From an uncultured bacterium (GTDB lineage: Bacteria > Electryoneota > AABM5-125-24 > Hatepunaeales > Hatepunaeaceae), in NCBI GenBank assembly GCA_964387885.1, contig CAYLYZ010000001.1, positions 175,903 to 239,902 on the forward strand: 64,000 nt of DNA. Reading direction: 5' to 3'. Positions 47,971 to 64,000 of this stretch are shown here, one piece after another (the first letter of the stretch is position 1; the number at the start of each line of letters is the position of its first letter). The position numbers were made by a program, and so were the translations under genes. The notes under the pieces were generated by a model. That model did no database searches, had not been told where the DNA came from, and saw nothing but the letters and a program-made list of their open reading frames with translations.

Positions 47971-48592
47971 TCTTTTTTAACCACTCTATCCATTCCTGAT
48001 AATCCGCATCTTCTGTTGGTGCAGAGAGATAATTATCTTGATGGATTTTCGAAAACCTCTTCATCAGCTCAATGTTTGCCTCCGATGAGTTATCACTATT
48101 AATGAGCATTTTTCGAAATTGTCCACCTGTTTTAACCCACTGACCCAAACCCTGATTGTTCTCAGCAAGACGATTGCGGATATCTCTTGCTAAAAAGGGT
48201 GCTTTTCCACTCGTTGATACAGCAACAATAAGGGGATCATCCCGCCAAACCGCTGATAGCACTACTGTGCATAATTCAGGATCATCAACGACATTTACAG
48301 GTACATGCAATTCTTGAGCCTCTTCAGAAATCTGTTTGTTTACCTTTCTTGATGCTGTTGCAGCAATTATCAGATCGAATCCCCTGCAGTCTCCATCACG
48401 ATATTCTCGCTTTTCCCATTTTAATTTTTCTTTACTCGACAATTGAGAAATCGTTCGAGTTACTTCAGGAGAAATAATCGAGATTTTACAGCCTGCTTCT
48501 AAAAGCCTCTCGACTTTGTTTGATGCAACATCTCCCCCACCAACAATCAAACAAGTTATGATTTCAGTTTTAAAGAATACCGGAAGAAACAT
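47942..48592 (-). CDS. sirC: Precorrin-2 dehydrogenase / sirohydrochlorin ferrochelatase (siroheme synthase N-terminal domain type).
   Basis: It has an NAD Rossmann motif (CLIVGGGDVASNKVERLLEAGCKISIISPE) and CysG-N/Met8 domain organisation. Confidence 0.75.
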   Translation of the reverse strand: MFLPVFFKTEIITCLIVGGGDVASNKVERLLEAGCKISIISPEVTRTISQLSSKEKLKWEKREYRDGDCRGFDLIIAATASRKVNKQISEEAQELHVPVNVVDDPELCTVVLSAVWRDDPLIVAVSTSGKAPFLARDIRNRLAENNQGLGQWVKTGGQFRKMLINSDNSSEANIELMKRFSKIHQDNYLSAPTEDADYQEWIEWLKKNEERGKCEG

Positions 48593-48628
48593 TTACTTTT
48601 CTATTAGTCCTTTTTGTATAACACATCT

Positions 48629-49111
48629 TTAAACCGCCACAGCCACTGGAATTGGGTTCAATGTCAGGTAAATTATAAGAACAATTGCTACAATTGCAAC
48701 AAATGATCCTGCCACAATTGCAGTTTTAATGAGGGATTCTTTTACCTGTACTTCAAAAACCTCAACTTTAGTTATCGCTGAAAGATCTATCGCTACCCGT
48801 TCAGTCCTATTCTCCGGAGGATTGAAAGAAGAATCAACGAATACATGCGGGATCGTTTTCAAATTATGAGCCTTATAACCTGGTATCCGCCTGTGAATTA
48901 CACCCTTTAACTGATTGTTTTTAAAACTTACATCGGTAATTTGAAATTCACGATTCTGCCAATGTAATATTACTGTCTTTTTACTTACAGGTATACTTTC
49001 ATTAACTGGTAATCTTACAGTAGAATATGAAACACATCCATTAATAAAACATACCAGTAACACTACTGAGATAATCCCAATAACTTTATCATTTAACTTC
49101 ATGCTGAACAC
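48629..49111 (-). CDS. Hypothetical lipoprotein with a C-terminal TM anchor.
   Basis: It has a lipobox FINGCVS and a C-terminal hydrophobic segment TAIVAGSFVAIVAIVLIIYL. I recognise no domain. Confidence 0.4.
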   Translation of the reverse strand: MFSMKLNDKVIGIISVVLLVCFINGCVSYSTVRLPVNESIPVSKKTVILHWQNREFQITDVSFKNNQLKGVIHRRIPGYKAHNLKTIPHVFVDSSFNPPENRTERVAIDLSAITKVEVFEVQVKESLIKTAIVAGSFVAIVAIVLIIYLTLNPIPVAVAV

Positions 49112-49262
49112 CTATCCACGAGTGTTAAAGATTGATATGTGTTTTCGCGGGAACAAACTTATTCTGCGCTCATATCTGTCCAGAATAGAAATCTAAGACA
49201 GAAATGAGTCCATACTTTTTACGAAAGTAATGACCTATGTTCGTCTTTGCAATGAACAAAGA

Positions 49263-49380
49263 GACGAAGCGGTTTTTTGTATATGTAGGGAGTAAAGAGA
49301 TTGCTTCACTTCGTTCGCAAAGATGTTACTTTTTGGAAATGCTGTAACAAACAAATATCCATAATAATTTCCCACTTTCC
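49263..49380. repeat. Copy 2 of the ~100 nt conserved intergenic element (core AGAGATTGCTTCACTTCGTTCGCAAAGA), ~190 nt upstream of the hypothetical lipoprotein/sirC/cobA genes.
   Basis: It aligns at ~80 % with 15687-15787 in the same orientation relative to the downstream minus-strand gene. Confidence 0.6.
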
Positions 49381-49434
49381 AAAGGATATACATAGATGTA
49401 AAAACTAAAGGAAAACAATCGGTACTTCGGGGAT

Positions 49435-50628
49435 TCACTCAGGAGAAGTTGGTGTGTTCATTGAATTCACGCGTCTCAGAAACTGACGATACAGACTACG
49501 AGACAGAGCCTCAAGCGCTTTTGAGTCACCCTGTCTGAAACTGTTCCTGAATTGCCCAAGAACCTCGATGCGATCATCGTCGAGTCTCTTTCGAAGTTCA
49601 GATGCACCAAAATCACTCGATTTGCGACGCCACTGTTCAAATACATCAACCTGTTCTTCAATGAGGTCTAATGCATAGGGCATTTCAACTGCTCGATCCT
49701 GCTGTACATCATCCAAATATCTTTTCAGATCATCAAGATCAAGAACTGTTACCCCTGATGCCTCTGCTACTTGCGGTTCGATATCCCGTGGAACCGCCAG
49801 GTCAACCGCTACTAATTGCCTGTTGTCACGGGGAATTGTTAAATTATCTTTAAGTACTACAAAATCGTTAGCTGAGGTTGCACTAAACAAGAGATCAGAA
49901 TTTGCAATCACTTCCGAAATATTTTCAATAGAATCTGTCAGGGCACCTACAGTGCGAGCCAATTTCTCAGCTTTGTGAACTGTCCTGTTCAGGATTGTAA
50001 TATTAACACTCTCACGGTTAAGCCTGCGAACGAGCATATCCGTTGATCTATTAACACCAATCACCGCTGCACTTAATCCGGAAATTTTTATTCCAAGAAG
50101 ATCTTTTAAAATATCAACAGCCGCACCGGCCAGCCCTTGAGCACCGATACCAATTTCTGTTTCACTTCGGATTCGTTTTGATATCTGGAAGGCATTGTGG
50201 AAAAGCTTGTGTAATCCTTTTCCAGGGCCATCAACTGAACAGGCTTCACTATAGGAGGATTTCACCTGTCCTAGTATCTGATACTCACCAAGTAATACTG
50301 AATCAAGCCCTGGTGCTACTTTAAACAGGTGTCTTGCTGCACTCGTTCCCTGACGGACAAATAGGAGTTTATCGAGATTCTTTTTATTACCGGTTATCCC
50401 TCGCGACTCATAAAAGGATGTAACACCTTCTTTTGCGTCGACTTTCTCACGATCTATTCTGTAGAATTCAATTCTGTTGCATGTTGCAAGAACAACAGCT
50501 TCAGGAGCTCCTGTTATTTCCTTAAAATCACTGGTTGCTTTTGCCAGCTCGTCCTTTTGCAATTGAAAAGGCTCTCTTTCTGACAAAGTGCAAGTATTAT
50601 GATTTATTCCACAACAACTTAAGAACAC
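49435..50628 (-). CDS. hemA: Glutamyl-tRNA reductase.
   Basis: The catalytic Cys in VLATCNRIEFY and an NADPH Rossmann motif (AAVIGVNRSTDMLVRRL) are present. Confidence 0.9.
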   Translation of the reverse strand: MFLSCCGINHNTCTLSEREPFQLQKDELAKATSDFKEITGAPEAVVLATCNRIEFYRIDREKVDAKEGVTSFYESRGITGNKKNLDKLLFVRQGTSAARHLFKVAPGLDSVLLGEYQILGQVKSSYSEACSVDGPGKGLHKLFHNAFQISKRIRSETEIGIGAQGLAGAAVDILKDLLGIKISGLSAAVIGVNRSTDMLVRRLNRESVNITILNRTVHKAEKLARTVGALTDSIENISEVIANSDLLFSATSANDFVVLKDNLTIPRDNRQLVAVDLAVPRDIEPQVAEASGVTVLDLDDLKRYLDDVQQDRAVEMPYALDLIEEQVDVFEQWRRKSSDFGASELRKRLDDDRIEVLGQFRNSFRQGDSKALEALSRSLYRQFLRRVNSMNTPTSPE

Positions 50629-50634
50629 AATTCT

Positions 50635-52344
50635 CTACGCCTTCTCATTTTGGCTTTCCATACTCGTGCTTATATTTTTAGGCATAAACAAAGCACCACC
50701 AGCCAGGATTCCAACATCACTCCATCCCGCTCGTCTTAAAATCAGAGCCGCATCCCAGGACCTACTCCCCATTTCACAGATAATCACCAATGTACACTTT
50801 TTCGGGATATCGTTAATTCTCCCTCTGAGTTCTTCGATAGGGATTTCTACATATCGATGATTTCTCTTATCGATTACAACGGTCTCTATCTCTTCAGGTT
50901 TTCTGACATCGAGGATTACCGTTTCATCTGAAAGGCTGTAAAAATCATTTGGAGAAATCAATTTAACACCGGCTGAGCGACTATTGTCTTCAATAAAAGC
51001 CATTGTGTGGAATGGATCAAATGGCTGTGAAAAGGGCGGAGAGTATGCCTGCTCAAGATCAGTTAACTTATCTATAGCCCACCCGGCATGAACAATCTGA
51101 GCTGCCTTATCTGCAAGGTGAAGGACATCACCTCTGGCTATTGCCTGCACACCAAGGATCTGTCCGTTCTTGTCATCATAAATGAGCTTGATATGGGTTT
51201 TTCCAGACTCTGGAAAATACCACAAACGATCGTGGAAAGTACCCCAGCAACTCGATATATCGTAGCCGTTCTCCCGGCAAGATGCAGAGCTCAACCCAAC
51301 CGAAGTAATTGCCAAATCAAAAAACTTCACGATAGTTACACCTGCAACAGGACCAAATCTTGAGTCACCATTGCAAATATTATCACCCGCAATTCTACCC
51401 ATCCGGTTAGCAAGAGATCCAAGAGCCCAATAGCCTGGTTTACCATCAACAGCATTGGTCATTTCAGCACAGTCACCGGCTGCGTAAATCTCCGGATCCG
51501 ATGTCTGCAATCTATCATTAACTTCGATCCCTCCAGTCACTCCGAGCTTTAGTCCTGTATCGTCAGCAAGCCTTGAGTTAGGAATAACTCCCGTAACTAC
51601 AAGAACCTTGTCAACAGTTATCGTTTCGTCTTCACCATCGGTTAGGACAAGCTTCTCACCGACTTTTTTGATCTCGCGACAATTGCATCCAAGCTTCAGG
51701 TTTACTCCCTGCTCAATCAGTTCCGATTCAACCAGTCGCGAGAGTTCTGGATCAAGGATCCCGGACATTACCTGTGATCGGAGTTCAATTAGATGTACAT
51801 CCACACCCCACATTGCACGGAAAGCTTCGCATAATTCAATACCGATGAAACCACCGCCAATAATTGCGACTGAACCTATCTTTCCTTGCTCGAGCTCTTT
51901 TCTCGTTTTAATCGCATCATTCAAAGTATGGAAGTACTCAACGCCTGGTAATGTTATTCCGGGAATGCCGGGGAGCAATGGGGATGAACCTGTAGCGATA
52001 ACCAGACGGTCATATGGCAGAGTTTTGGGCGAGTTCGATTTTAAATCGACGCAGCGAACAAACCTCGCAATTCGGTCAATCGAAACAGCCTCGTGCCCTG
52101 TTAAGATTTCAACACCTTTTACATCGTGGAAATACTTCATATCCTTGATCGTACCGGCCGGGGTTGAAATGAGATCTTTAGCCTGATCGATATCTCCGGA
52201 CAAAAAATATGCCATACCGCAAGTGGAATACCCAAAGGTATCCTCTTTTACGATAACGGTTACGTTAGCATCCGGTTGTAGACGGTGGATTCGGCATGCG
52301 GCTTTTAGACCCGCAGCCGAACCACCGATAACGATAACTTCCAT
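50635..52344 (-). CDS. CoA-disulfide reductase / NADH oxidase family flavoprotein fused to a C-terminal rhodanese domain (NADH-dependent persulfide/polysulfide reductase-like).
   Basis: The FAD motif VIVIGGSAAGLKAA and the CoADR-type redox Cys YSTCGMAY are present. The C-terminal rhodanese module has the active-site loop CEMGSRS (Cys + 4 residues + Arg; the canonical rhodanese loop is CX5R/T). Confidence 0.75.
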   Translation of the reverse strand: MEVIVIGGSAAGLKAACRIHRLQPDANVTVIVKEDTFGYSTCGMAYFLSGDIDQAKDLISTPAGTIKDMKYFHDVKGVEILTGHEAVSIDRIARFVRCVDLKSNSPKTLPYDRLVIATGSSPLLPGIPGITLPGVEYFHTLNDAIKTRKELEQGKIGSVAIIGGGFIGIELCEAFRAMWGVDVHLIELRSQVMSGILDPELSRLVESELIEQGVNLKLGCNCREIKKVGEKLVLTDGEDETITVDKVLVVTGVIPNSRLADDTGLKLGVTGGIEVNDRLQTSDPEIYAAGDCAEMTNAVDGKPGYWALGSLANRMGRIAGDNICNGDSRFGPVAGVTIVKFFDLAITSVGLSSASCRENGYDISSCWGTFHDRLWYFPESGKTHIKLIYDDKNGQILGVQAIARGDVLHLADKAAQIVHAGWAIDKLTDLEQAYSPPFSQPFDPFHTMAFIEDNSRSAGVKLISPNDFYSLSDETVILDVRKPEEIETVVIDKRNHRYVEIPIEELRGRINDIPKKCTLVIICEMGSRSWDAALILRRAGWSDVGILAGGALFMPKNISTSMESQNEKA

Positions 52345-52364: not shown

Positions 52365-53519
52365 TCAAGCAATCGATTTACGCACACCAAGCGCAATCTT
52401 ATATAGAACTGTTATAATCCCGGCACCAAGTGCATACACAGCAAGTGTAATTGCTACTTCCGGGAATGTTGGCATATATTCTGTCACTGTACCCAATGGT
52501 GATGGGATAAATCCGGTAACAACCATTCCCATTCCTTTATCGATCCAAATGGACAGGAAAAGAATAATACATGCAAATACAAGAACGTTTTCTTTCTTTC
52601 GTGTATTTGGATTAAGTAAAAGGACTAAGGATAATACAGCCAGAACAACCGAAGCCCACATCCATGGAACTAATGCTGTTTTATCTCCGAGACCAAAAAA
52701 CATATAGGTAAAATGCGACGTATGTTCAGGCATACTGCTATAATAAGCGGTGAACAACTCCATCAGGATCAGGAATATGTTCAAACACATCGCATACGTA
52801 ACGATTAACGCAAGCTGTTGCATTGCTTTCTTACCGATATCAAATGTTGATACTTTTTTCAGCACCATCGCAATAATAATCAATAATGCTGGTCCCGCAG
52901 CAAATGCAGAAGCAAGGAATCGCGGAGCTATCACAGCACTCAACCAGAACGGGCGACCCGCCAGTCCTGAATAAAGGAACGCGGTTACCGTATGAATGCT
53001 AAAAGCCCAGGGTATTGATAGAATGATGAAAGGTTTAATCCATTTCGGAGGAGCAATCCCTTTCTTCTCTGCGTTTAGACTGAAATGGCTGATGAATACG
53101 TTTAGTATCAGATACCCAAACAAAACAACTGTATCCCAGAACATCATTGATGATGGGGACGGATGCAGAAACACGTTCGTGATCCGAAACGGCATACCCA
53201 TATCTACAAAGATAAAGGACATGCACATGATACATGCACCAATTGCAACGAATTCACCGAGAACGGTCATTTTCCCGAATGCTTTATAATTGTGGAGATA
53301 ATATGGGAGCACAACCATCACTGCAGATGCAGCGACACCAACAAGAAAGGTGAATTGAGCGATATAGAATCCCCAGGTTACATCTCTACTTAATCCTGTG
53401 ATACCGAGCCCGTAGTCAAATTGTTTCAGGTAGAAAAGTACTCCGAAACCAATGACTGCTGCGAGGGCGAAAAGCCAGACCCAATACCCTTTATTCCCAC
53501 TTAATGCTTTTTCTAACAT
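52365..53519 (-). CDS. dsrP: DsrP, the NrfD/PsrC-like integral membrane quinone-interacting subunit of the DsrMKJOP complex.
   Basis: A 384 aa polytopic membrane protein of the NrfD family, sitting directly downstream of the DsrO-type ferredoxin. Confidence 0.75.
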   Translation of the reverse strand: MLEKALSGNKGYWVWLFALAAVIGFGVLFYLKQFDYGLGITGLSRDVTWGFYIAQFTFLVGVAASAVMVVLPYYLHNYKAFGKMTVLGEFVAIGACIMCMSFIFVDMGMPFRITNVFLHPSPSSMMFWDTVVLFGYLILNVFISHFSLNAEKKGIAPPKWIKPFIILSIPWAFSIHTVTAFLYSGLAGRPFWLSAVIAPRFLASAFAAGPALLIIIAMVLKKVSTFDIGKKAMQQLALIVTYAMCLNIFLILMELFTAYYSSMPEHTSHFTYMFFGLGDKTALVPWMWASVVLAVLSLVLLLNPNTRKKENVLVFACIILFLSIWIDKGMGMVVTGFIPSPLGTVTEYMPTFPEVAITLAVYALGAGIITVLYKIALGVRKSIA

Positions 53520-53526
53520 CTAAGCC

Positions 53527-54300
53527 TCACACTATGTAGTAAATTTGAGGTTCGGTTCCAAGACCTGGCCTACGACGAATTGTAAAATTATTTTCCAGAA
53601 GCTCTCTGACTTTACTGTGAGTATCATTTAAATCACCAAAAGTCAGTGCTCCCGCCTTACAGGCATCAACACACGACGGCATTTTTCCTCTCGCCAGACG
53701 TTCCTCACAGAATGTACATTTCTCAACAACTCCGCGCATCCGAGTCGGATATTCAAGGTTGATTTTCTTCTTCAGATTGTCAGCCTCACGAGGATCGCGC
53801 CAATTGAAACTACGAGCCCCATAAGGACAGGCAACAACACAATACCGACAACCAATACATCTGTGCCAATCCATCATTACTATACCATCCTCATCCCGTT
53901 TCCATGTCGACTGAGTCGGACATGCTTTTACACAGGGCGGATTATCACAGTGGTTGCATAGGACGATTGAAGGGCCATGTAGAATATGCTCGGCAAGGTG
54001 GTCATGACCTACATCATGAAATGCCCCATGAAAACTCTCTTTCCAGATCCACTTTAATTCATCCTTCGGATTACCGAAATCTGGTACATTGTGTGTTTGA
54101 TGACAGGCATCTACGCATGCTGTACAATCTTTTTCATGGTGACATTTAGGAAGATCAATTACCATTGCCCATCTTTTACCGGATTTCTTTGATCCTTCAG
54201 GAATCTTTACCTTTGCAAAAAGATCGATGGCTGGACCAGCTGTCAAACCGACCGTACCAAGTCCGGCTAATTTAAGGAAATCTCTTCTGTCTATACTCAT
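53527..54300 (-). CDS. dsrO: DsrO, a periplasmic Tat-exported 4x[4Fe-4S] ferredoxin subunit.
   Basis: It has a Tat signal RRDFLKLAGLG and four Cys clusters (CTACVDAC, CNHCDNPPCVKACP, CIGCRYCVVACPYGA, CTFCEERL...CVDAC). Confidence 0.8.
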   Translation of the reverse strand: MSIDRRDFLKLAGLGTVGLTAGPAIDLFAKVKIPEGSKKSGKRWAMVIDLPKCHHEKDCTACVDACHQTHNVPDFGNPKDELKWIWKESFHGAFHDVGHDHLAEHILHGPSIVLCNHCDNPPCVKACPTQSTWKRDEDGIVMMDWHRCIGCRYCVVACPYGARSFNWRDPREADNLKKKINLEYPTRMRGVVEKCTFCEERLARGKMPSCVDACKAGALTFGDLNDTHSKVRELLENNFTIRRRPGLGTEPQIYYIV

Positions 54301-54680
54301 TATTTAAAGTCCTCCGGTACGATATGACACGTCCAGCAATAGGGTTTAACTCCCATATAGTTATGGCATTGGTCACAGAACTTCTCCTTGCTCGGATGAC
54401 AGTCCAGGCAAGTGTTGGTTAAACTGCGATCATACTTTTTCCCATTTGGAGCCACATGATCCCTCTCACCTTTTCGAACGACTTCTTCACGCCATTCGTT
54501 CAGCAAGTCCATGTGATAAGCAGTCATATATTCTTTTTCCATAACACATGCTTCACCTTTTGGCTTTTCAAGCTTAGGTCTTTCGGAAGACGTTCCTGTA
54601 GCCAGGTTAAGCCAAATCGGGATTGTCATGAGAACGACGAATATAATCACACCGATTACAACGTTTCTCTTATCACTCAT
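54300..54680 (-). CDS. dsrJ: DsrJ, a triheme cytochrome c.
   Basis: A 126 aa protein with an N-terminal TM/signal segment and three CxxCH motifs (CLDCH, CDQCH, CWTCH). Confidence 0.8.
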   Translation of the reverse strand: MSDKRNVVIGVIIFVVLMTIPIWLNLATGTSSERPKLEKPKGEACVMEKEYMTAYHMDLLNEWREEVVRKGERDHVAPNGKKYDRSLTNTCLDCHPSKEKFCDQCHNYMGVKPYCWTCHIVPEDFK

Positions 54681-56298
54681 CCTTATTACCCTCCTCGGTT
54701 AAGAAGGGTTCGCCACGCATATCGGTACGATCCTCCTTCTCACCTTTCATAACGAGTGCATTTCCAACAAGTTCATGTACACCTGCAACCTGTACTTCCG
54801 GAACCCAGAACTCCAATAAAGGAGGTAGGGTTGCCTTATCAATAGCGCAAACACAGGAAAGGACGTTAACACCGTGTTTTTCATGAACATGTTTGACAGC
54901 ATTTGCTCGAGGCAAACCTCCACGCATCCTCATTTCGAAGTTTTCATCGGTACCAAGTCCCGAACCACTTCCACAGCAGAATGTCTGTTCGCGAATGGTG
55001 TTCTCCGGCATTTCATGGAATTTGTTTACAACATTATTTATTACATACCTGGGTTCATCAAGCAATCCCATCGCACGAGCCGGATTACAAGAATCGTGGA
55101 ATGTAACATTCCACTGATCATTTCGGCTTTTATCGAGTTTCAGCTTATTATTTTTTAACAAGTCAGCAGTGAACTCACAAATGTGAACCATTTTCGTGGA
55201 TTTAGCATTCTCAAATACAGTACCCGTTATTGGAGACTTTGGTACTTCCATGAAGTCTGCAGGACCGTTCATCGTGTCCATATACTGGTGAAGTACTCGC
55301 CACATGTGACCGCATTCAGCACCGATAATCCACTTTACACCAAGTCGTTTGGCTTCCATATAGATTTTAGAATTCAAAGTTTTCATCATCTCGTTGGAAT
55401 GGAAAAGTCCGAAATTCCCACCCTCGGATGCAAAAGCGCTGAGGGTATAATCGAGTCCGATTTCATGGAACAATGAAAGATAGCCGAGGAATCCGAAATA
55501 GTGGGGATCGCCAAAATAGTCTGCTGAGGGTACGACAAATAGAATCTCTGCACCTTTCTTATTTACGGGAGCGTCAACTTTAATACCCGTAATATCTTCC
55601 AGATCGTCAATTGCAAAATCGACACTGTCCTGAAATCCGTGTGGTTGAATACCAAGGTGGTTTCCGGTTCTGAAGCAATTAGCTGCTGGCGTCGTGATCC
55701 AGTCAATCCCAAGTCCAAGTAACTGTAATAGCTCACGAACCATCATCGTGATTTCTGCAGTGTCAATCCCATACGGACAGAAAACAGAACATCTCCGACA
55801 CTCCGTACACTGATAGAAATAATAGAACCATTCTTTGATCACATCGACGGTTAATTCACGGCCTCCAGCCATCTTACCCATTATCTTACCGGCAAGAGTA
55901 TATTCCTTCCTGTAAATCGACCGCAGCAATTCTGCTCTGAGAACAGGCATATTCTTCGGATCACCGGAACCGATGAAAAAATGGCATTTATCCGCGCAAG
56001 CACCACAGCGAACGCAGATATCCATAAATACTTTGAGTGATCTAAATCTGTCCAAACGGTCTCGCAAACCATCGAATATTATTTGCTGCCAATTAGCTGG
56101 AAGCTGCCAATCTTCTTCATTAGTCTGCCATTTACGTGGATTCGGGAGGTCAAGATATTCTTGCGACTTTTGTATTGCAGCCCAGTTGAAAGTTCCCTTC
56201 TTATATTCGGTTTTTGGGTCTTCCCAACCTTTTTTGGAAGGAGTAAATTCTATCTGAGCTACGCTTTCTGGTGTAGGTTTTTTTTCTGACATACTCAC
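54673..56298 (-). CDS. dsrK: DsrK, the HdrD-like catalytic subunit with CCG domains.
   Basis: It has two ferredoxin motifs (CVRCGACADKC, CTECRRCSVFCP) and CCG domains (FCCGSGSG), in a 541 aa protein. Confidence 0.85.
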   Translation of the reverse strand: MSMSEKKPTPESVAQIEFTPSKKGWEDPKTEYKKGTFNWAAIQKSQEYLDLPNPRKWQTNEEDWQLPANWQQIIFDGLRDRLDRFRSLKVFMDICVRCGACADKCHFFIGSGDPKNMPVLRAELLRSIYRKEYTLAGKIMGKMAGGRELTVDVIKEWFYYFYQCTECRRCSVFCPYGIDTAEITMMVRELLQLLGLGIDWITTPAANCFRTGNHLGIQPHGFQDSVDFAIDDLEDITGIKVDAPVNKKGAEILFVVPSADYFGDPHYFGFLGYLSLFHEIGLDYTLSAFASEGGNFGLFHSNEMMKTLNSKIYMEAKRLGVKWIIGAECGHMWRVLHQYMDTMNGPADFMEVPKSPITGTVFENAKSTKMVHICEFTADLLKNNKLKLDKSRNDQWNVTFHDSCNPARAMGLLDEPRYVINNVVNKFHEMPENTIREQTFCCGSGSGLGTDENFEMRMRGGLPRANAVKHVHEKHGVNVLSCVCAIDKATLPPLLEFWVPEVQVAGVHELVGNALVMKGEKEDRTDMRGEPFLTEEGNKDE

Positions 56299-57287
56299 TC
56301 CTTCTCCAGGGGCATATCCGCCGCCTTCATTACATCACGGAATTCGTCTTCCCACTCTTCGTAGGTGTGAAGTTTTACTTTCGGATTCCATGGATTGATG
56401 TGGCGTACTTCCCTGTTATTGTTAGACATATTTCGCGTTGGACTTAAGAAAATACCGCCCATATGCATCAATTTACTCAGCGGGAAATAAATCAACAGCA
56501 CGCTCACAAGGAATAAGTGGACGAAAAATATCGCGTCAATTCCCTCTGGGATAACGGGCTGGAAGCTAAATAATCCAAGTGTAAACTGTTTTACACCGAT
56601 TATATCGACCTTGCCAAAATACCTCATCCACACACCTGTAAGGGCAATCCCTATTATAAGCAGCAGTGGAAAATAATCCGCAACGAGAGAAATGTAGCGC
56701 AGCTTAGGATCAATAATTCTTCTGAAGAACAGGACAGTTAATCCGAGCAGAAGGACAGCATCGGTCATGAATAAAATTGGCAAGCCAATTTGCATGAATC
56801 CATCAAGACTTTCCAGAAGAGGAATAAAACTGGGAACTTCCTGAAGAAAAATCTTAAAATGACGTATAAAAATCACGAGAAATGACCAATGAAAGGCAAG
56901 GGATGCCGCCCATAAAATCTTATCTGGTCCGTACACGATTTTTGGTCCCTCTTTCAGTCCTGTTCTTGTATTTCTGAACAATGATCTGAAAAACAGAACC
57001 TCTAATACCATCCGCCAGAAAACACCAGCGGTGTTATGCGGACTTTCAAGGTTATTGTTGTTAATCCATGGTAACGACTTCTGCTGCCCGCAAGTAGTTG
57101 TTATCTTGAATGGTACAGGTATCTTCGCCCATTTCAGGACACGGATGCTCATCCCGATCACAAAAGTAAGAATTGCAATGTAAGGGATTATTACTCCAAA
57201 AAGATACACCAAACCACTGACCTTGGATCCGATTAACGGAATTCCGAAGAGGATTAACACTAATATTAGGGAAATGATAAATTTCAT
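56295..57287 (-). CDS. dsrM: DsrM, a NarI-like dihaem cytochrome b membrane subunit.
   Basis: It is a ~330 aa polytopic membrane protein of the NarI/HdrE type that precedes dsrK. The ORF track started it at a TTG; the ATG 6 nt downstream (MKFIISL) is more likely. Confidence 0.75.
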   Translation of the reverse strand: MKFIISLILVLILFGIPLIGSKVSGLVYLFGVIIPYIAILTFVIGMSIRVLKWAKIPVPFKITTTCGQQKSLPWINNNNLESPHNTAGVFWRMVLEVLFFRSLFRNTRTGLKEGPKIVYGPDKILWAASLAFHWSFLVIFIRHFKIFLQEVPSFIPLLESLDGFMQIGLPILFMTDAVLLLGLTVLFFRRIIDPKLRYISLVADYFPLLLIIGIALTGVWMRYFGKVDIIGVKQFTLGLFSFQPVIPEGIDAIFFVHLFLVSVLLIYFPLSKLMHMGGIFLSPTRNMSNNNREVRHINPWNPKVKLHTYEEWEDEFRDVMKAADMPLEKE

Positions 57288-57401
57288 TAGCAATTCCCTG
57301 ATAATGAGTTATTCCGGTATATCATAATTGCCCTCAATCTCCTCAATTGGAAAGAAACCAAATCTACACTTTAGGTGCGGTTTGATTCACTTATTTCCGG
57401 T

Positions 57402-57911
57402 CTACTCCTGAGGTTCAATCAATCCTGCACGAGTCAGGAGTTTAAAATATTTTCTCTTCACCTCATTGGCTCTGATTTCGAAAGTCTTCTCACGACATGC
57501 TACATAAAGGTCAAAAGCCAACAAACAAAGGTGGTCTATTCTGTTTTCAAACGCAGTTAATTCATCGAAATCGCTTTTTTTCTCGACAAATTTAAACAGG
57601 TGTGAACGAATGATATTTTTAAGTTCAAAAGTAAAACTGATAGCTTGGGAAGGAGAGAAATCCTGTACTGATCTGATGTGTATAACTTCATCAAGTTCCT
57701 TCCTGACCAGATCCACATCCGGAGAATCCAATAATGACTCAAAAATCGTTTCGAGACACCTTGAGAGTGTATGACCTACAGGATTATGGAACCGATTCTT
57801 TTTACCTGTCAAAAACTTCAAACCGCCTTCAAGATATGAACTGAAAAGTATATTCTGCCACTCTTCAATAATTCCTTCTTTCTCTGCTCTAAGTATTTCT
57901 TTGAGCTTCAT
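57402..57911 (-). CDS. dsrT: DsrT-like protein (RsbRD-N-like small protein that commonly precedes dsrMKJOP).
   Basis: A 169 aa soluble alpha-helical protein immediately upstream of dsrM. The assignment rests on position and size more than on motifs. Confidence 0.45.
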   Translation of the reverse strand: MKLKEILRAEKEGIIEEWQNILFSSYLEGGLKFLTGKKNRFHNPVGHTLSRCLETIFESLLDSPDVDLVRKELDEVIHIRSVQDFSPSQAISFTFELKNIIRSHLFKFVEKKSDFDELTAFENRIDHLCLLAFDLYVACREKTFEIRANEVKRKYFKLLTRAGLIEPQE

Positions 57912-58180
57912 ATCTGAGACGGTCTTGCGTTTTCATATCTGTTAAGCTGTATACAGATAAAAATCTCGCTTCTCTCCGGTTATTTGTAAATTGGATTAAA
58001 TGATCAATATCTCAAATCCAGAACAGAGCAAATGATCAACATAGCCATCGCGATTTACTTTTCTCAAACCTGCAGATCTGCATGAATCATCAACAAACGA
58101 ACGGTATTTAATTCCACCGAATGAATGTTTAGTACGCTTACCTGCAGGCCAGAGAATTTACCAGCTAAACAAACCGGAGA

Positions 58181-58498
58181 TCAGACACACCCGGTTGGCT
58201 TGGCAAGACCTGCAACCTTACAGGCACCCTTTGCAGGACCTGATGGGAACATGTCATATACTTCCTTGAGTGAGAATCCGGTTTCTTTACAGAGCTTGCG
58301 GATCATCGGTGCAATACCGAATTTGGCATAGTAATCACGAAGATAATTAATCATTTTCCAATGATTATCATCAAGTTCATCAACACCTTCGGTACTTGCT
58401 AATGCAAGAGCTACTCTGTCATCCCATTGTTCGGGATTTTCCATGAATCCGTCTTCATCGACATCAATTTTGACTTCATTCCACTCAAATGTCGCCAT
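58181..58498 (-). CDS. dsrC: DsrC, the sulfite reductase co-substrate / sulfur carrier.
   Basis: A 105 aa protein with a C-terminal arm ...GPAKGACKVAGLAKPTGCV carrying the two conserved Cys (CysB, and CysA penultimate). GGAGG lies upstream. Confidence 0.9.
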   Translation of the reverse strand: MATFEWNEVKIDVDEDGFMENPEQWDDRVALALASTEGVDELDDNHWKMINYLRDYYAKFGIAPMIRKLCKETGFSLKEVYDMFPSGPAKGACKVAGLAKPTGCV

Positions 58499-58547
58499 TT
58501 TAGTTTCCTCCGTAATCTATTTAGATTAAAATTTTCTGCCCAACAAG

Positions 58548-60227
58548 TTACTTCATCTCGATGTAACCACAGGGGCATGCTTCTTTACATTTATCACAAC
58601 CATTACAAAAGTCCAGTTTAAACTTGTATGGTTCACCAGGAATCAAAGGTTTAATGATAGCCTGATCCTGGCAATAACTCCAACATGTACCACAATCGAA
58701 GCAGGAACCACAGCTCATGCAGCGTTTCGCTTCTTCTATAACCGAGGCTTCCGGTAAAGTTGTGGTGATCTCTTGCCAGGGTTCTTCAAATCGTCTGTCT
58801 GGTGGCACACTCTCACACTCATTACGCAGGGCTTGCTCGTAAAAAGTAAGTATCATTCGATCCGGTGATGCCAAGGGTAATGGTTCTTTTTTCTTAAGCT
58901 CAATACCGCGGAATTGCGCGTGAATCGTTTCTGCGGCAAGTCGTCCCTGGGCGAGGGCTATAGTCACCAGACCAAGGTCCAATACGTCGCCACCACCGTA
59001 AGTTTTATCTTCTTTAGTCTTTCCCCATTCATCGACTTTTACCCAATCGCGTCCTTCATGGAGATTGTCAAGACCTTCGAAATCCGGTTCCTGTGAAATA
59101 GCCGGAATTAATGAAGTCAACTCGACAGTAAACGTATCACCCTCAATCGGCACAGGGCGTCTGCGACCTGATGAATCAGGTTCACCCAGCTCCATCTGCT
59201 GACATTCCATCCTGACAACCTTGCCATCCTCGAGCTCAAGTTTTTTTGGCGCGGCGAGGAAATGGAAGATTACGCCTTCTTCCTCAGCTCCAACGATTTC
59301 TTCTTCAATCGCGGGCATCTCATTTCTTGTGCGACGATAGAGGATTGTAACTTCCTTGGATCCAAGCCTCAAAGCAACTCTTGCAGCGTCGATGGCGGTA
59401 TCACCTCCACCGATTATAACAACCTTATCTCCGATCTCAACATGATTACCATCGGCAATTTGATTCAGAAAGCCGACTCCGCTGAAGACGTTTGGGGCAT
59501 CCTCATTTTCAAGCCAGAGCCCTTTGCCTTTGTGTGCACCGATTCCGACAAAAATCGCATCATAGTCCGATTGAACCTGTTCGTAGGGAATGTCCCTGCC
59601 AACTGCAATATTGGTTTTTAACTCAACACCGAGATCAAGAATCTTTTGGATTTCACCATCAAGAATATTATGCGGAAGACGGTATGAGGGGATTCCATAC
59701 CTGAGCATACCACCAGGTTTTGAAAAAGCCTCGAAAATTGTCACCGCATATCCCTGGCGAGCCAAATGATAAGCACAGCCAAGTCCGGCAGGTCCAGCGC
59801 CCAGAACTGCAATCTTTTCGGATTGAGTTTCATCGGTAAGTTTCTTATAAGGGAGATCCTTTTCAATTCCCCAGTCACCGATGAATCGCTCAACATTGTT
59901 GATTGCTAAAGCACCGTCTTTGCCAATTCTATTACATGCTTCTTCACATGGATGAGGGCAAACTCGTCCACATGTCGCTGGGAGAGGATTTTTCTTTGTA
60001 AGTGTTTCCCAGGCTTCCATGAATGCTTCTTCCTGGGGTCTTTCATATTTTTCTGCTTGAGCAATTGTCATCAGAACACTGCGAATCTCCGTACCTTGCG
60101 GACATGCGCTAATGCAAGGTGCTTCTTTTTCAAGCACATACGGTCGTCTTGAGCTTGTTTCACTCCCGGACGATCCACCACCACTGCGTATTACAAGTTT
60201 TTTCTTTTTCTTCTTCAGTAAGGCCAT
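58548..60227 (-). CDS. dsrL: DsrL, a GltD-like NAD(P)H:acceptor oxidoreductase with a C-terminal 2x[4Fe-4S] ferredoxin domain.
   Basis: It has N-terminal Fe-S Cys clusters (CISACPQG, CGRVCPHPCEEAC), FAD/NAD(P) Rossmann motifs (VLGAGPAGLGCAY, VIIGGGDTAIDAA) and a C-terminal ferredoxin region CMSCGSCFDCGTCWSYC...CNGCDKCKEACPCG. It lies between dsrN and dsrC. Confidence 0.75.
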   Translation of the reverse strand: MALLKKKKKKLVIRSGGGSSGSETSSRRPYVLEKEAPCISACPQGTEIRSVLMTIAQAEKYERPQEEAFMEAWETLTKKNPLPATCGRVCPHPCEEACNRIGKDGALAINNVERFIGDWGIEKDLPYKKLTDETQSEKIAVLGAGPAGLGCAYHLARQGYAVTIFEAFSKPGGMLRYGIPSYRLPHNILDGEIQKILDLGVELKTNIAVGRDIPYEQVQSDYDAIFVGIGAHKGKGLWLENEDAPNVFSGVGFLNQIADGNHVEIGDKVVIIGGGDTAIDAARVALRLGSKEVTILYRRTRNEMPAIEEEIVGAEEEGVIFHFLAAPKKLELEDGKVVRMECQQMELGEPDSSGRRRPVPIEGDTFTVELTSLIPAISQEPDFEGLDNLHEGRDWVKVDEWGKTKEDKTYGGGDVLDLGLVTIALAQGRLAAETIHAQFRGIELKKKEPLPLASPDRMILTFYEQALRNECESVPPDRRFEEPWQEITTTLPEASVIEEAKRCMSCGSCFDCGTCWSYCQDQAIIKPLIPGEPYKFKLDFCNGCDKCKEACPCGYIEMK

Positions 60228-60321
60228 TGCCTATCCTCCATAGAAAACCCTTACTTTCACGTACATGAAGTGATTAACGGTTTTCTGTTAAATGTCTGTT
60301 CTTATCGTGCCGGATGTTCTC

Positions 60322-61710
60322 TCAGCATCTTTTCTTGTTCAAATTTAATATTTTATATCTTTTAGCAGCCTTCTTCATACCGTCCGCCCATGCCTGGGCA
60401 CCTGATACGTGAAGGTGAAGATAACTTGCTAGCACATTACGATGTAATAAACCATCGCGTGCATCTCCTACTCCGACTCCTCTCTTCACCCTGAAAACTG
60501 TAGAAAGACTGGATTGCGTTTCAATTCTTGAATAATGAAACTCATGCCCGCGTAATTGCTGCCCCTTCTTAAAGAAGGGATTCTCTTCTTCAACCACAAC
60601 TTCTTGATAACCGTGACCCTGAGGTCGTTTGCTAATCTGAATCGAATGTTCAAATACTCCTGCCATCGGGTATGTATTGCCTTCCCAATGAATGGATTTC
60701 GAAAGGAACATTAGTCCCCCGCATTCGGCATAAATGGGCAATCCCTTTTCAGCAGCTTCTGCAACCGATTTTCGAATCGATTCGTTATCTGAAAGTCTTG
60801 CGGCATGTGTTTCCGGAAAACCACCGCCTATATAAAGAGCTTCTATATCTGGTAATTCAGTAATTTCAAATGGATTTACCGGAACGAGAGTGAAACCATC
60901 CCCGCTCAGTGCCTCAAGATTTTCCGGGTAATAGAAAGTGAAGGCACTACCGGTAAAATAACCTATCCTAATTGGTTTATCCCTCTGTGGGATAATTACT
61001 GACTGTTCAGACTGAACACCGGAAGGGATTTCAATGCCTGTGACATCTCCAGCTATTTCCGAGATTCTGTCTAAATCAACATTATCTTCAATCAACTTTG
61101 CAGACAATTCAATTGCTTTATCTGCAACCTGATTTTCTTCTGGTGTCACCAGACCTAAATGTCTGCCCGGTAACGGATCTTTTCTCATGCGGGGGATGAT
61201 TCCAAGTACTGGTATCCCCGCTTCATTTTCAACGGCATCACGAATAACTCTCGCTTGCCGTTCAGTAGCAATCTGGTTGAGAATGACTCCAGCAAAGTTG
61301 ACATCCCTGTCAAACATCTTGATTCCCATCAAGATCGCAGCTATTGTGCGTGTCACCTTAACAACGGGAATAACAATAACTACGGGAAATCCCAGTAATT
61401 TTGCCATTTCCGCCGATGAATGAGTTCCCTGAGCATTCTCCCCATCATGTAGGCCACGATTAGCTTCCATGATGTTTAAGCCATCCGTAATGACATACTC
61501 TGAGAATGATCTTAGAACCTGTCGTGTGCCCATCATCCATGTATCGAGATTATGCGCTTCCCTGCCGGCAGCCAGACGCAACCAGGCGGGATCTATGTAA
61601 TCAGGACCTTTCTTAAAGGGCATCACGGGAATTCCCTTGCGACGGTAGGCACCGATGAGCCCTAACGTCGCAAGAGTTTTCCCACTATCACCACCCGCTC
61701 CGGCTATCAT
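60322..61710 (-). CDS. dsrN: DsrN, a cobyrinic acid a,c-diamide synthase (CbiA/CobB) homolog, putative siroheme amidase.
   Basis: It has the N-terminal ATPase domain (MIAGAGGDSGKTLATLGL) and a C-terminal glutamine amidotransferase-like domain, in a 462 aa protein. Confidence 0.8.
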   Translation of the reverse strand: MIAGAGGDSGKTLATLGLIGAYRRKGIPVMPFKKGPDYIDPAWLRLAAGREAHNLDTWMMGTRQVLRSFSEYVITDGLNIMEANRGLHDGENAQGTHSSAEMAKLLGFPVVIVIPVVKVTRTIAAILMGIKMFDRDVNFAGVILNQIATERQARVIRDAVENEAGIPVLGIIPRMRKDPLPGRHLGLVTPEENQVADKAIELSAKLIEDNVDLDRISEIAGDVTGIEIPSGVQSEQSVIIPQRDKPIRIGYFTGSAFTFYYPENLEALSGDGFTLVPVNPFEITELPDIEALYIGGGFPETHAARLSDNESIRKSVAEAAEKGLPIYAECGGLMFLSKSIHWEGNTYPMAGVFEHSIQISKRPQGHGYQEVVVEEENPFFKKGQQLRGHEFHYSRIETQSSLSTVFRVKRGVGVGDARDGLLHRNVLASYLHLHVSGAQAWADGMKKAAKRYKILNLNKKRC

Positions 61711-61751
61711 TAACCGTGGCGGATTGATAGCAGTTTCGGGAGACTTCAGAA

Positions 61752-62000
61752 TCAGTCGTTTGCTGAAGCTTCTTTATGAGGCAGTTCAACAAAACTGCCG
61801 CCGAAATATGTGTAAACACACTGTCCGGTATCAACCAGATTCTTCACTGCATTTTTGGCAAGTTTCTTATCAACATCCGGGTAAAGCTGCCTTACAGCCT
61901 TAACCAGATCCATTGATTTCAACTTTTTCTTTACTGCAGTTGCATCCTTGACTATTTTCAACATTGCTGCTGAAAGTTCTTCCATTGTAGGATCTGCCAT
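61752..62000 (-). CDS. dsrD: DsrD, a small winged-helix protein.
   Basis: An 82 aa lysine-rich protein whose C-terminus ...GQCVYTYFGGSFVEL matches the DsrD (E)YW/Y-SSG-S signature. It is directly downstream of dsrB. Confidence 0.75.
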   Translation of the reverse strand: MADPTMEELSAAMLKIVKDATAVKKKLKSMDLVKAVRQLYPDVDKKLAKNAVKNLVDTGQCVYTYFGGSFVELPHKEASAND

Positions 62001-62018
62001 CAGAACGTCTCCTGAATA

Positions 62019-63101
62019 TTAAAACCGCAGGTGCGTTGACCGCTTGTAGGTCAAGCCTGCATGTTTGAAGTCGTCAATATGCTCTTTTTCGAATTCAATG
62101 CCGGTCATTTCAAAGAAACGAGGCCAGCCAATCCGATCAATCCATTCACCCATACGTTCGTATGGTTGAGCATTGTCTTTCCAGGTGTAGACCAGATTCT
62201 TAATTGCTTCAACAGTCTCAGGCCAGCGTGGAGGAGTGTTGGGCAGGAACGGAATAGCGAGTTTCGAGAACATCGGCTCTTTACGTGCGTTTGACACTTT
62301 ACCACCAACCCAGATTGAAACACCGTCTGTGACGGAATCGTTCAGGGTCATTGAGGGGCAAACAGTGTAGCAGTTAGCACAGAACATACAGCGATCATCG
62401 ATAACTTCAACTGATTCGAATCCATCTACTTCTGCCGGACGAATCGCAGCAGTCGGGCAGGATGCGAGAACACTCGGGATCTCACATACTTTTTTCACAC
62501 TGTCATGTGCAACAATTGGCAAGCGACGGTGGACACCAAGGATAGCAATGTCTGAGCAGTGAACAGCACCACACATATTCAGGCAGCATGCAAGAGCGAT
62601 ACGCATCTTGGCTGGAAGATTATGACCGGTGAATTCATCAATCAACTCATCCATCACAGCCTTGACGATACCTGATGCATCTGTTGCAGCCGAGTGACAG
62701 TGAATCCATCCCTGGGTATGAACGATGTTTGAAATTGAATTTGCGGTTCCACCTACCGGGTGTCCCAAAGCTTCAATTTCTTTCTTTATGCCAGCAATGT
62801 TATCTTCATTTGTCGTCATGAACTCGACGTTATTACGACTTGTGAAGCGAAGATATCCATCGCAGTATTTATCGGCAATATCACAATATTGCCTGATCTT
62901 CTGGATCGAAAGCAATCTTGGTGAAGATGCTCTGACGGTAAAGATCTTGTCTCCGGATTCTGCAACGTGAACGTAGACACCCGGAGCGAGAATTTCGTGG
63001 CGATCCCACTTGTGATAGTTGTTTAGAATAACAGGCGGCAGATTCTCTTTAAAATGAGGCGGCCCGATATCTGTCAACCTTTTAGCAGGTTCTGCAGTCA
63101 T
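62019..63101 (-). CDS. dsrB: Dissimilatory sulfite reductase beta subunit.
   Basis: It has the siroheme/[4Fe-4S] coupling Cys cluster [16 protein letters not shown] and ferredoxin-like insert Cys residues ([12 protein letters not shown]), in a 360 aa protein. Confidence 0.9.
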
Positions 63102-63171
63102 TTATAACTCCTGTATCGAATTTTTTCTTGAACTTAATTAATCGATTTAGAGAATTGAACAAAAAGTATTT

Positions 63172-64000
63172 CTACTCATCGTCCTCATCATCATCTAACG
63201 TATAGAAGACATAAGGATTATCCCTTGGTTGCGCGACCATCTCAGGCATCGGTTCGAGACCGATAGCATCGAGGAAGTTACCCTTACCGATACGTTCGAT
63301 AAATTCACCGATACGCTCACGGTTTTTACCTTCTTCACCCCAGATTTCCCAAATCTCATCGATGAGATCTTTGAGATCTTCGAAGTTTGGATCTTCATCG
63401 TTAAACGGTTCATCCATTTTCATGAATGGAACCAGTACGCTTGATAGAAGTGCTCCTTCGAGGATCGGAGCTTTTGAACCTAACAGAACTGTTGCTCCGC
63501 GATCTTTACCCGGTTTGAGTGCGAGGTGCATTACATTGATACAATGCATGCAACGGGCACAATTACGGTTATCGATATTAAGTTCTTTTCCGTCCCATGC
63601 CATACAATCGGTCGGGCAGCGATTGATTACATCACGCTGGATGTTCAGTCCTTCATCAACATATTGCGCAACGCGGTCGTTGTTTACCTGAATATCATCT
63701 CGCCATGTACCGATAATAGATAAATCAGCACGTGCAATTGAAGCTACACAATCGTTCGGGCAACCCGCCATCTTAAATTTGAACTTATACGGGAAGAATG
63801 GGCGGTGAAGCTCATCTTGATAGTGCATTGTCAAATCATAGGTGACCTTCAACGTATCATACATTGCCCATTCACAACGGGCGGGACCGTTGCAGCAGGA
63901 AGGTGTACGCATCACAGAACCTGAACCACCGAGGTCAAAACCGAGTTTCGTCAGTTCATCAAAGGTTGGTTCCAGCTCATCGGTATTTGTTCCCAGGAAT
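63172..64000 (-). CDS. dsrA: Dissimilatory sulfite reductase alpha subunit, 5' partial; the N-terminus lies beyond the window end.
   Basis: The frame is open to the window edge (...FDLGGSGSVMRTPSCCNGPARCEW...). There is a ferredoxin-like domain (CPNDCVASIARADL, CPTDCMAWDG, CARCMHCINVM) and an unusual acidic C-terminal tail DDDEDDE. Confidence 0.85.
   Translation of the reverse strand, partial: FLGTNTDELEPTFDELTKLGFDLGGSGSVMRTPSCCNGPARCEWAMYDTLKVTYDLTMHYQDELHRPFFPYKFKFKMAGCPNDCVASIARADLSIIGTWRDDIQVNNDRVAQYVDEGLNIQRDVINRCPTDCMAWDGKELNIDNRNCARCMHCINVMHLALKPGKDRGATVLLGSKAPILEGALLSSVLVPFMKMDEPFNDEDPNFEDLKDLIDEIWEIWGEEGKNRERIGEFIERIGKGNFLDAIGLEPMPEMVAQPRDNPYVFYTLDDDEDDE

Follow-up and report, generated by a model that had tools for sequence, protein, structure and literature searches.

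A dsr gene cluster with reductive-type DsrAB, a divergent DsrD-like protein and a type 2 DsrL in an uncultured bacterium

The dissimilatory sulfite reductase (dsr) locus described here lies at the end of a 64,000-nucleotide stretch of DNA from an uncultured bacterium (GenBank assembly GCA_964387885.1, contig CAYLYZ010000001.1, positions 175,903 to 239,902), the whole of which is referred to below as the window. Twelve dsr genes were found on the minus strand between positions 52365 and 64000, in the order dsrA (partial)-dsrB-dsrD-like-dsrN-dsrL-dsrC and, after an intergenic gap, dsrT-dsrM-dsrK-dsrJ-dsrO-dsrP. An earlier note on this DNA, made from the sequence alone, had listed the same genes with this order, strand and set of coordinates, all of which were reproduced, the dsrC-dsrT gap (57912..58180) being measured at 269 nt. 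The partial dsrA gene (63172..64000; TIGR02064, E=2e-110) is represented by its 3' two-thirds (275 codons) and runs past the window end, while on an identical public scaffold, introduced below as L001, the full-length gene encodes 405 aa and scores 546 bits against the DsrA model (cut-off 392.85). The dsrB gene (62019..63101) specifies the 360-aa dissimilatory sulfite reductase beta subunit (TIGR02066, 494 bits against 341.5), which matched reductive DsrB chains in the PDB (E ~1e-138). It is followed by a divergent dsrD-like gene (61752..62000) for an 82-aa protein with a winged-helix fold and the motif CVYTYFGGSFVELPH (Pfam PF08679, 19.6 bits), by dsrN (60322..61710), encoding a 462-aa siroheme a,c-diamide synthase homologue (CobB-type NF002204, 424 bits; Pfam CbiA and GATase_3), by a dsrL gene of type 2 (DsrL-2C; 58548..60227), encoding a 559-aa iron-sulfur flavoprotein (PRK12771, 575 bits against 516), and by dsrC (58181..58498), encoding 105 aa (Pfam DsrC, PF04358, E=9e-37; TIGR03342, 113 bits). 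The DsrC C-terminus, ...CKVAGLAKPTGCV, was shown to retain both redox-active catalytic cysteines, the C-terminal arm ...GACKVAGLAKPTGCV holding the conserved residues C93 and C104 as read from the sequence.

Beyond the gap, dsrT (57402..57911) encodes a 169-aa protein matching Pfam RsbRD_N (E=3e-15), and the genes after it specify the DsrMKJOP complex: dsrM (56295..57293), the membrane cytochrome b subunit (NF038037, 510 bits against 300); dsrK (54673..56298), the catalytic Fe-S subunit with the CCG motif FCCGSGSG (NF045796, 731 bits against 400); dsrJ (54300..54680), a periplasmic triheme cytochrome c with the motifs CLDCH, CDQCH and CWTCH (NF038038, 158 bits against 100); dsrO (53527..54300), a periplasmic Fe-S subunit with a twin-arginine translocation (Tat) signal (NF045797, 307 bits against 200; Fer4_11 and a weak TAT_signal match); and dsrP (52365..53519), an NrfD-type membrane subunit (NF045798, 461 bits against 350; Pfam NrfD). 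All five subunits exceed their equivalog cut-offs, with cofactor motifs in DsrJ and DsrK, and the curated NCBIfam cut-offs were likewise passed by full-length DsrA and by DsrB, as well as by AprA and QmoC from the flank described below. With E-values of 1e-47 to 1e-220 against these curated equivalog models, chance matches are ruled out. Among the twelve genes, only the DsrD-like one lacks a match well above the cut-off of its model.

The dsrC-dsrT gap may represent the boundary of two transcription units. Its minus strand shows a single weak terminator-like site, at 58119-58102, and a single promoter-like site, at 58067-58038, and no Rfam family was matched in it. Since the counts of promoter- and terminator-like sites across the locus region were at the level of shuffled sequence, i.e. 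that expected by chance, no operon boundary is claimed beyond the 269-nt gap itself. Scanning the window for Rfam families, tRNAs and tandem repeats gave nothing relevant.

An exact-protein look-up with DsrB located the same locus on five public contigs, the longest of which, a 274-kb ENA scaffold (L001; loci are numbered with the prefix L throughout), was 100% identical to the window across the 11,982 nt compared. Upstream of dsrA on this scaffold, and co-oriented with dsrAB, are aprB, aprA, a gene for a 281-aa CxxCxxCC protein, qmoC, qmoA and qmoB, with AprA scoring 888 bits against TIGR02061 and QmoC 380 bits against NF038018; both aprAB and qmoABC, which had been named as genes to look for on the contig, are thus accounted for. 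The possibility that dsrEFH lies upstream of dsrA had also been raised, but aprBA and qmoCAB were found there instead, and dsrEFH was not detected among the open reading frames (ORFs) of the 64-kb window or in 9 kb of upstream sequence from L001 (~73 kb in total). An exact 40-mer from the end of aprB had no match among metagenome contigs, and an AprA-based scan of such contigs recovered only relatives at ≤80% identity and not the organism's own contig.

For comparison, a genome-contig search was performed with the DsrL alignment and DsrL-2-specific patterns, yielding at least 80 named loci on which every dsr gene was mapped; the matches listed contain neither DsrL-1 sequences nor the window organism's own genome. 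Among the loci listed, DsrA identity to the window protein was bimodal, at 61-69% where a small gene follows dsrB and at 46-49% where it is absent. The low-identity group includes Desulforhopalus sp. IMCC35007, Nitrospirae RBG_19FT_COMBO_42_15 and gammaproteobacterial and Arenicellales metagenome-assembled genomes (MAGs), the first two having been classed as oxidative-type by Löffler 2020 (PMC7596348). In a neighbour-joining tree of concatenated DsrAB (29 taxa, 749 columns), DsrD-linked and oxidative-type sequences were separated in 200/200 bootstraps, and the window DsrAB was placed on the DsrD-linked side, amid Ignavibacteria, Zixibacteriota, Gemmatimonadota and Acidobacteriota. Judged from this sequence grouping, the window DsrAB is of the reductive bacterial type, in line with the earlier proposal of a reductive-type locus, for which DsrAB placement had been suggested as a check. 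Two operons, one of each DsrAB kind, lie on the Thermoleophilia contig L024 and fall on opposite sides of the split; both kinds have likewise been reported in an Actinomycetota MAG by Diao 2023 (PMC10591310). A PDB search retrieved no solved DsrL and no oxidative rDsrAB, and structures hence provided no discrimination between types.

The 559-aa protein was shown to be a genuine DsrL, as had been proposed, with Fer4_20 (residues 34-123), Pyr_redox_2 (138-428) and C-terminal Fer4_21 (508-558) domains. Its C-terminal 60 residues hold 11 cysteines, and those of the ferredoxin domain are invariant in the DsrL alignment (A1); this domain, the lack of which was to have marked the protein as an NfnB/GltD paralogue, is therefore present. 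Löffler 2020 (PMC7596348) associated the YRR motif (Y297-R298-R299, in the context TILYRRTRNE), which is invariant in alignment A1, with a strict dependence of DsrL-2 on NADP(H). Where NfnB has Cys42, the protein has Arg instead of Cys (S25-S-R-R28-P), a difference that separates the DsrL-2 of organisms with reductive DsrAB (PMC7596348); in the DsrL alignment, all DsrD-linked proteins were found to read [ST]xxR, whereas all those beside oxidative-type dsrAB read SWKC. The DsrL tree groups the window protein within the dsrAB-D-linked clade, away from paralogues without dsr linkage, and gives it as sister the DsrL of Ca. Hatepunaea meridiana, to which it is 69% identical. Its gene shares the strand of dsrB and lies ~1.8 kb downstream of it, and linkage to dsrAB was likewise observed in ~30 related loci listed. 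Identity to the species-representative sequences retrieved ranged from 35 to 69%, the nearest public cluster mate being at 89%. By its YRR and Arg motifs, the protein is typed as DsrL-2, corresponding to subcluster 2C as named by Diao 2023 (PMC10591310), which settles the DsrL type as the earlier note had suggested doing, and it is predicted to act as an NADPH:acceptor oxidoreductase. Because the search patterns were DsrL-2-specific and the tree contains no DsrL-1, the call against DsrL-1 rests on these published motif criteria.

Compared with DsrL-2C proteins and the DsrL-2 of Desulfurella amilsii (Löffler 2020), the window protein has the same three-part architecture, comprising an N-terminal two-cluster part, an FAD/NAD(P) part and a linker with a two-[4Fe-4S] ferredoxin. 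It also shares with DsrL-2C the YRR motif, Arg in place of the NfnB-Cys42 ligand, a location beside reductive dsrAB and dsrD, a length of ~560 aa and freedom from the DsrL-1A insertions. The D. amilsii enzyme is the biochemical model (Löffler 2020), whereas the window DsrL is known from its sequence. The position of dsrN between the dsrD-like gene and dsrL is as in Ignavibacteria and Zixibacteriota, unlike most Acidobacteriota loci. DsrL-like paralogues without dsr linkage are widespread (L050 in Ca. Hatepunaea meridiana, L041-L044 and L053-L061), measuring ~550-615 aa, mostly with an N-terminal 'GSWR/GSWK', and keeping the YRR motif and the C-terminal ferredoxin domain; Ca. Hatepunaea carries such a paralogue besides its dsr-linked DsrL.

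The 82-aa protein belongs to a family of 76-87 aa homologues that are encoded directly after dsrB in >20 loci and share the motif CVYTYFGGS(F/Y)(I/V)ELP, where DsrD of Desulfobacterota has YWSSGSTT. The family occupies the dsrD slot in the window, Acidobacteriota, Ignavibacteria, Zixibacteriota, Gemmatimonadota and Desulfobacca, and its gene is absent from the oxidative-type loci L024b, L033, L036, L038, L039, L046 and L059a. One member, attributed in UniRef to the cultured sulfate reducer Desulfobacca acetoxidans, stands in a locus of the order dsrA-dsrB-[81 aa]-dsrN-ferredoxin, without dsrL. PF08679 was reached at E<0.01 by 1/20 and 7/45 relatives, and is the Pfam family matched by the most members of alignment A3 (the latter 7/45). 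Of 119 database relatives, none carried a Pfam domain, most of the named ones being called 'hypothetical protein'; searches of the PDB with the protein and with the family profile did not find DsrD, and an hhalign comparison with DsrD of D. vulgaris, whose sequence was verified as 1UCR, gave a non-significant probability of 0.2%. An AlphaFold (AF2) model (mean predicted local distance difference test score, pLDDT, 83.4) showed a winged helix of the form H-H-H-strand-strand, for which Foldseek retrieved 1ucr_A with template modelling (TM) scores of 0.62/0.67, although it ranked only 20th in a list of Fur-type and further generic winged-helix domains.

The assignment to DsrD is made because of position, fold and a sub-threshold Pfam match. 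We conclude that the 82-aa family forms a divergent clade of DsrD, with orthology judged by position and with no tie to DsrL, although it falls short of the Pfam threshold. The gene that the earlier note had called dsrD encodes a winged-helix protein and is conserved after dsrB. In common with canonical DsrD (PF08679; D. vulgaris DsvD, 1UCR), the window protein is ~80 aa long, lysine-rich and of winged-helix fold, and is encoded directly after dsrB, and the wing motif is rich in Tyr, Gly and Ser in both (YTYFGGS and YWSSGSTT, respectively). Conversely, canonical DsrD is cysteine-free, whereas C61 is near-invariant in the clade of the window protein. This residue lies in CVYTYFGGS and is the only cysteine of the window protein, while most members of the clade have a second one (consensus xCKxAI; alignments A2 and A3). 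Canonical DsrD has been described as an allosteric activator of DsrAB by Ferreira 2022 (PMC8794893).

Homologues of dsrT were found upstream of dsrM in most related loci. The earlier note had taken dsrT as a marker of reducers, a view that does not hold, because dsrT homologues follow oxidative-type dsrAB-dsrL in L046 and L059. The gene is carried by green sulfur bacteria too.

On the other side of the cluster, 20 nt downstream of dsrP, a minus-strand gene (50635..52344) encodes a 569-aa fusion of a coenzyme A (CoA)-disulfide reductase and a rhodanese (Pyr_redox_2, Pyr_redox_dim and Rhodanese domains), which resembles an NAD(P)H persulfide or polysulfide reductase and whose best PDB matches were 6pfz, 3nta and 8a56 (CoA-persulfide reductase). 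Homologues follow dsrP also in Hatepunaea, Ignavibacteria, Zixibacteriota and several Acidobacteriota loci, and this conserved position suggests a functional link of persulfide or polysulfide reduction with DsrMKJOP. The protein contains an STCGM stretch in its N-terminal flavoprotein part and a CEMGSR stretch in its rhodanese domain. It is followed on the same strand by a siroheme-supply block (46411..50628) consisting of hemA (49435-50628; GlutR_N), a gene for a predicted 160-aa membrane protein with no family match (48629-49111), a sirC-like precorrin-2 dehydrogenase gene (47942-48592; NAD_binding_7 and Sirohm_synth_M) and a cobA-hemD fusion (46411-47970; TP_methylase and HEM4; TIGR01469, 254 bits). 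The hemC gene lies on the plus strand at 13460-14359, 33 kb from the other genes of the siroheme pathway.

Within the upstream flank, the 281-aa protein between aprA and qmoC (L001:2813-3658) has a PF03692 CxxCxxCC (YkgJ-like) domain and no NCBIfam match. Homologues with 36-47% identity are also aprA-adjacent in L008, L022, L025, L035, L043 and L049, loci labelled Acidobacteriota, Pseudomonadota and 'Hyphomicrobiales', and the protein may serve the Apr/Qmo module as a so far undescribed accessory. The qmo genes (L001:3660-8519) are arranged as aprBA-X281-qmoC-qmoA-qmoB, X281 denoting this protein, while L022, L025 and L043, all acidobacterial, show the usual order qmoA-qmoB-qmoC. In L002 (6253-8519; Joint Genome Institute (JGI) contig Ga0171656_1002788), qmoB was called as two ORFs of 471 and 292 aa, whereas in L001, which is otherwise identical, it is a single gene of 755 aa; the split probably stems from a frameshift or misassembly in either L001 or L002.

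Apart from the dsr genes, the window encodes two S8 peptidases with sorting tails of the type IX secretion system (T9SS), a GWxTD protein, LpxA and a LolE/FtsX-type permease. Its lysyl-tRNA synthetase (LysRS) shares 63% identity with the enzyme of Ca. Hatepunaea meridiana, a member of the phylum Ca. Electryoneota (= AABM5-125-24), 61-64% with those of NCBI 'Calditrichota bacterium' MAGs and 54-55% with that of Caldithrix abyssi, and the DsrB and DsrL cluster mates at ≥90% identity bear the NCBI label 'Calditrichaeota bacterium'. By the markers tested, the host is a Gram-negative member of the Fibrobacterota-Chlorobiota-Bacteroidota (FCB) superphylum closest to Electryoneota/AABM5-125-24; the earlier reading of an FCB-like host, which had pointed to these same T9SS proteases, GWxTD protein, LpxA and LolE, was thereby confirmed. 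With no more than 63% LysRS identity to Ca. Hatepunaea, the organism would represent a distinct lineage, probably at the family level or deeper.

The gene order itself recurs in other lineages: qmoAB-dsrABDNLC-dsrTMKJOP-persulfide reductase was also found in the species-representative genomes of Ignavibacteria L010 and Zixibacteriota L015, and the part from dsrA onward in Ignavibacteria L007 and L009. Gene identities, order, motifs, phylogenetic grouping and conserved synteny were all read directly from these data. The co-occurrence of reductive DsrAB, DsrD and DsrL-2 was stated as a rule by Löffler 2020 (PMC7596348). Diao 2023 (PMC10591310) applied the name 'DsrL-2C' to proteins of Acidobacteriota, Zixibacteria, AABM5-125-24 (= Electryoneota), Kapabacteria and others, and reported a full Dsr set with dsrD and dsrL-2 in AABM5-125-24, Zixibacteria, Acidobacteriota and Kapabacteria. 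Electryoneota were inferred to be proteolytic sulfate reducers with many S8 peptidases by Williams 2022 (PMC9324843), and their dsr operons were drawn with an adjacent NAD(P)H sulfur reductase gene by Vigneron 2023 (PMC10439189). The combination of markers, regarded in the earlier note as unusual and under-described, is thus documented in these four studies and occurs in the same order in Ignavibacteria and Zixibacteriota; that interpretation was right on the identities of the genes and wrong on how unusual they are.

With the operons of Electryoneota/AABM5-125-24 (Williams 2022; Vigneron 2023) and Kapabacteria, the window organism shares an FCB host, reductive dsrAB, dsrD, dsrL-2, aprBA and qmo, as well as the attached NAD(P)H sulfur/persulfide reductase gene and proteolysis with many S8 peptidases, the kapabacterial system compared being 'Ca. 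Thermonerobacter thiotrophicus' as it is cited in Diao 2023. The window organism has a complete dsrJOP, where Ca. Tariuqbacter has petBCD. Oxidative clusters (Allochromatium dsrABEFHCMKLJOPNRS; Chlorobi dsrNCABLEFHTMKJOP) have dsrAB, dsrC, dsrL, dsrN and dsrMKJOP in common with the window, and those of Chlorobi also dsrT. The window differs from them in having no dsrEFH, in its DsrD-like gene, in a DsrAB outside the oxidative clade and in a DsrL of the YRR/Arg type rather than DsrL-1.

Taken together, the locus is probably the central part of a supercluster for dissimilatory sulfate/sulfite reduction, carried by an uncultured bacterium of the FCB superphylum, a reading to which we assign a probability of roughly 0.78. 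In such a pathway, AprBA would reduce adenosine 5'-phosphosulfate (APS) to sulfite with electrons from QmoABC; reductive-type DsrAB, its siroheme amidated by DsrN, would act together with DsrC to convert sulfite to the DsrC trisulfide; and the membrane complex DsrMKJOP would reduce the trisulfide to sulfide and regenerate DsrC, coupled to the quinone pool. The divergent DsrD-like winged-helix protein would probably activate DsrAB allosterically, DsrL-2 would pass electrons from NADPH to DsrAB, and the adjacent persulfide-reductase-like flavoprotein and siroheme-synthesis genes would support the pathway. We infer the direction of the pathway, the use of NADPH, the activator role of the DsrD-like protein and expression of the cluster from characterised homologues (PMC7596348, PMC8794893).

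Several observations weigh against this reading. The same gene set is also present in sulfur disproportionators and in Desulfurivibrio-type sulfide oxidisers with reductive-type enzymes (PMC8794893, PMC10591310), and sat is not among the flank genes retrieved, the flank ending inside aprB. The 82-aa protein matches PF08679 with E=1.2e-3 at 19.6 bits, below the gathering score of 24.2, and by sequence or fold alone it is inseparable from generic winged-helix proteins. Furthermore, both the DsrAB and the DsrL tree are neighbour-joining trees whose taxa were collected via DsrL-2-biased patterns, without canonical Desulfovibrio-type or DsrL-1 references.

Among the alternatives, the gene set might instead serve the disproportionation of elemental sulfur, thiosulfate or sulfite, or the reduction of only sulfite, thiosulfate or organosulfonates, with DsrL-2 and the persulfide reductase balancing NADPH and zero-valent sulfur. 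Such a role would be consistent with the occurrence of reductive DsrAB, DsrD and DsrL-2 among organisms without sulfate respiration (Desulfurella and disproportionators; PMC8794893), with the rhodanese-fused persulfide-reductase-like gene straight after dsrP and with a flank in which sat was not seen before its end inside aprB. However, the presence of aprBA and qmoCAB directly upstream of and co-oriented with dsrAB argues for a link to APS and sulfate, and sat is encoded in related Electryoneota MAGs (PMC9324843); we consider this alternative unlikely. Quite doubtful, in our estimate, is a further proposal with two forms: either the 82-aa family is a distinct cysteine-bearing partner of DsrAB rather than a plain DsrD orthologue, exerting, for example, redox- or sulfur-sensitive tuning via C61, or a pelagic FCB host runs the reductive-type module bidirectionally at a redox interface.

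Operation of the cluster in reverse, for sulfide or sulfur oxidation with DsrL passing electrons to NADP+, as some organisms do with reductive-type enzymes in oxic-anoxic transition zones, appears very improbable, given a DsrAB that falls outside the oxidative clade in 200/200 bootstraps, a DsrD-like gene of which the oxidative-type loci listed have none, an Arg in DsrL where every DsrL linked to oxidative DsrAB has Cys, and the absence of dsrEFH within ~73 kb. This is set against the facts that DsrL was first known as essential in sulfur oxidation, that Desulfurivibrio and cable bacteria oxidise sulfide via reductive-type Dsr (PMC10591310, PMC8794893) and that high-affinity oxidases and soeABC are frequent in Electryoneota MAGs (PMC9324843). 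That the 559-aa protein is a mere NfnB/GltD-type paralogue near dsr, and the 82-aa ORF an unrelated small winged-helix regulator, is hardly credible in spite of the many unlinked DsrL-like paralogues (e.g. L041-L044, L050 and L053-L061) and the lack of a significant sequence match to D. vulgaris DsrD, since the 559-aa protein groups with the DsrL encoded beside dsrAB rather than with the unlinked paralogues and has the DsrL-specific C-terminal ferredoxin domain that NfnB lacks, the positions of both genes are preserved exactly in at least six phyla, and PF08679 is the leading match in A3 (7/45). The NfnB identity of the 559-aa protein was accordingly rejected on domain architecture, tree position and synteny.

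Elsewhere in the window, the genes switch to the plus strand at ~33.4 kb and return to the minus strand at ~43 kb, with the sign of the GC skew changing likewise; the skew simply tracks the coding strand (~33.2-43.0 kb). Two ORFs, one of 380 aa on the minus strand (43028-44170) and one of 104 aa on the plus strand (7301-7615), have no Pfam match even at E<0.1, and a 288-aa ORF occupies 25.5-26.2 kb.

The locus is useful as a clean annotation template. The DsrD variant escapes the standard Pfam and NCBIfam models, and DsrL receives only a generic name from them ('NAD(P)-binding protein' or 'FAD-dependent oxidoreductase'), so that both markers will be under-called by automated pipelines in genomes of this kind. 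Since reducer markers together with DsrL are already documented in several bacterial phyla, the cluster is an ordinary new example and opens no new question. It adds one more well-assembled, NADPH-linked DsrAB-DsrD-DsrL-2 module, contained in a contiguous cluster of >25 kb on a 274-kb scaffold from an uncultured FCB lineage, and lends support to the current picture, in which sulfate/sulfite reduction reaches far outside the classical Desulfobacterota and Firmicutes.

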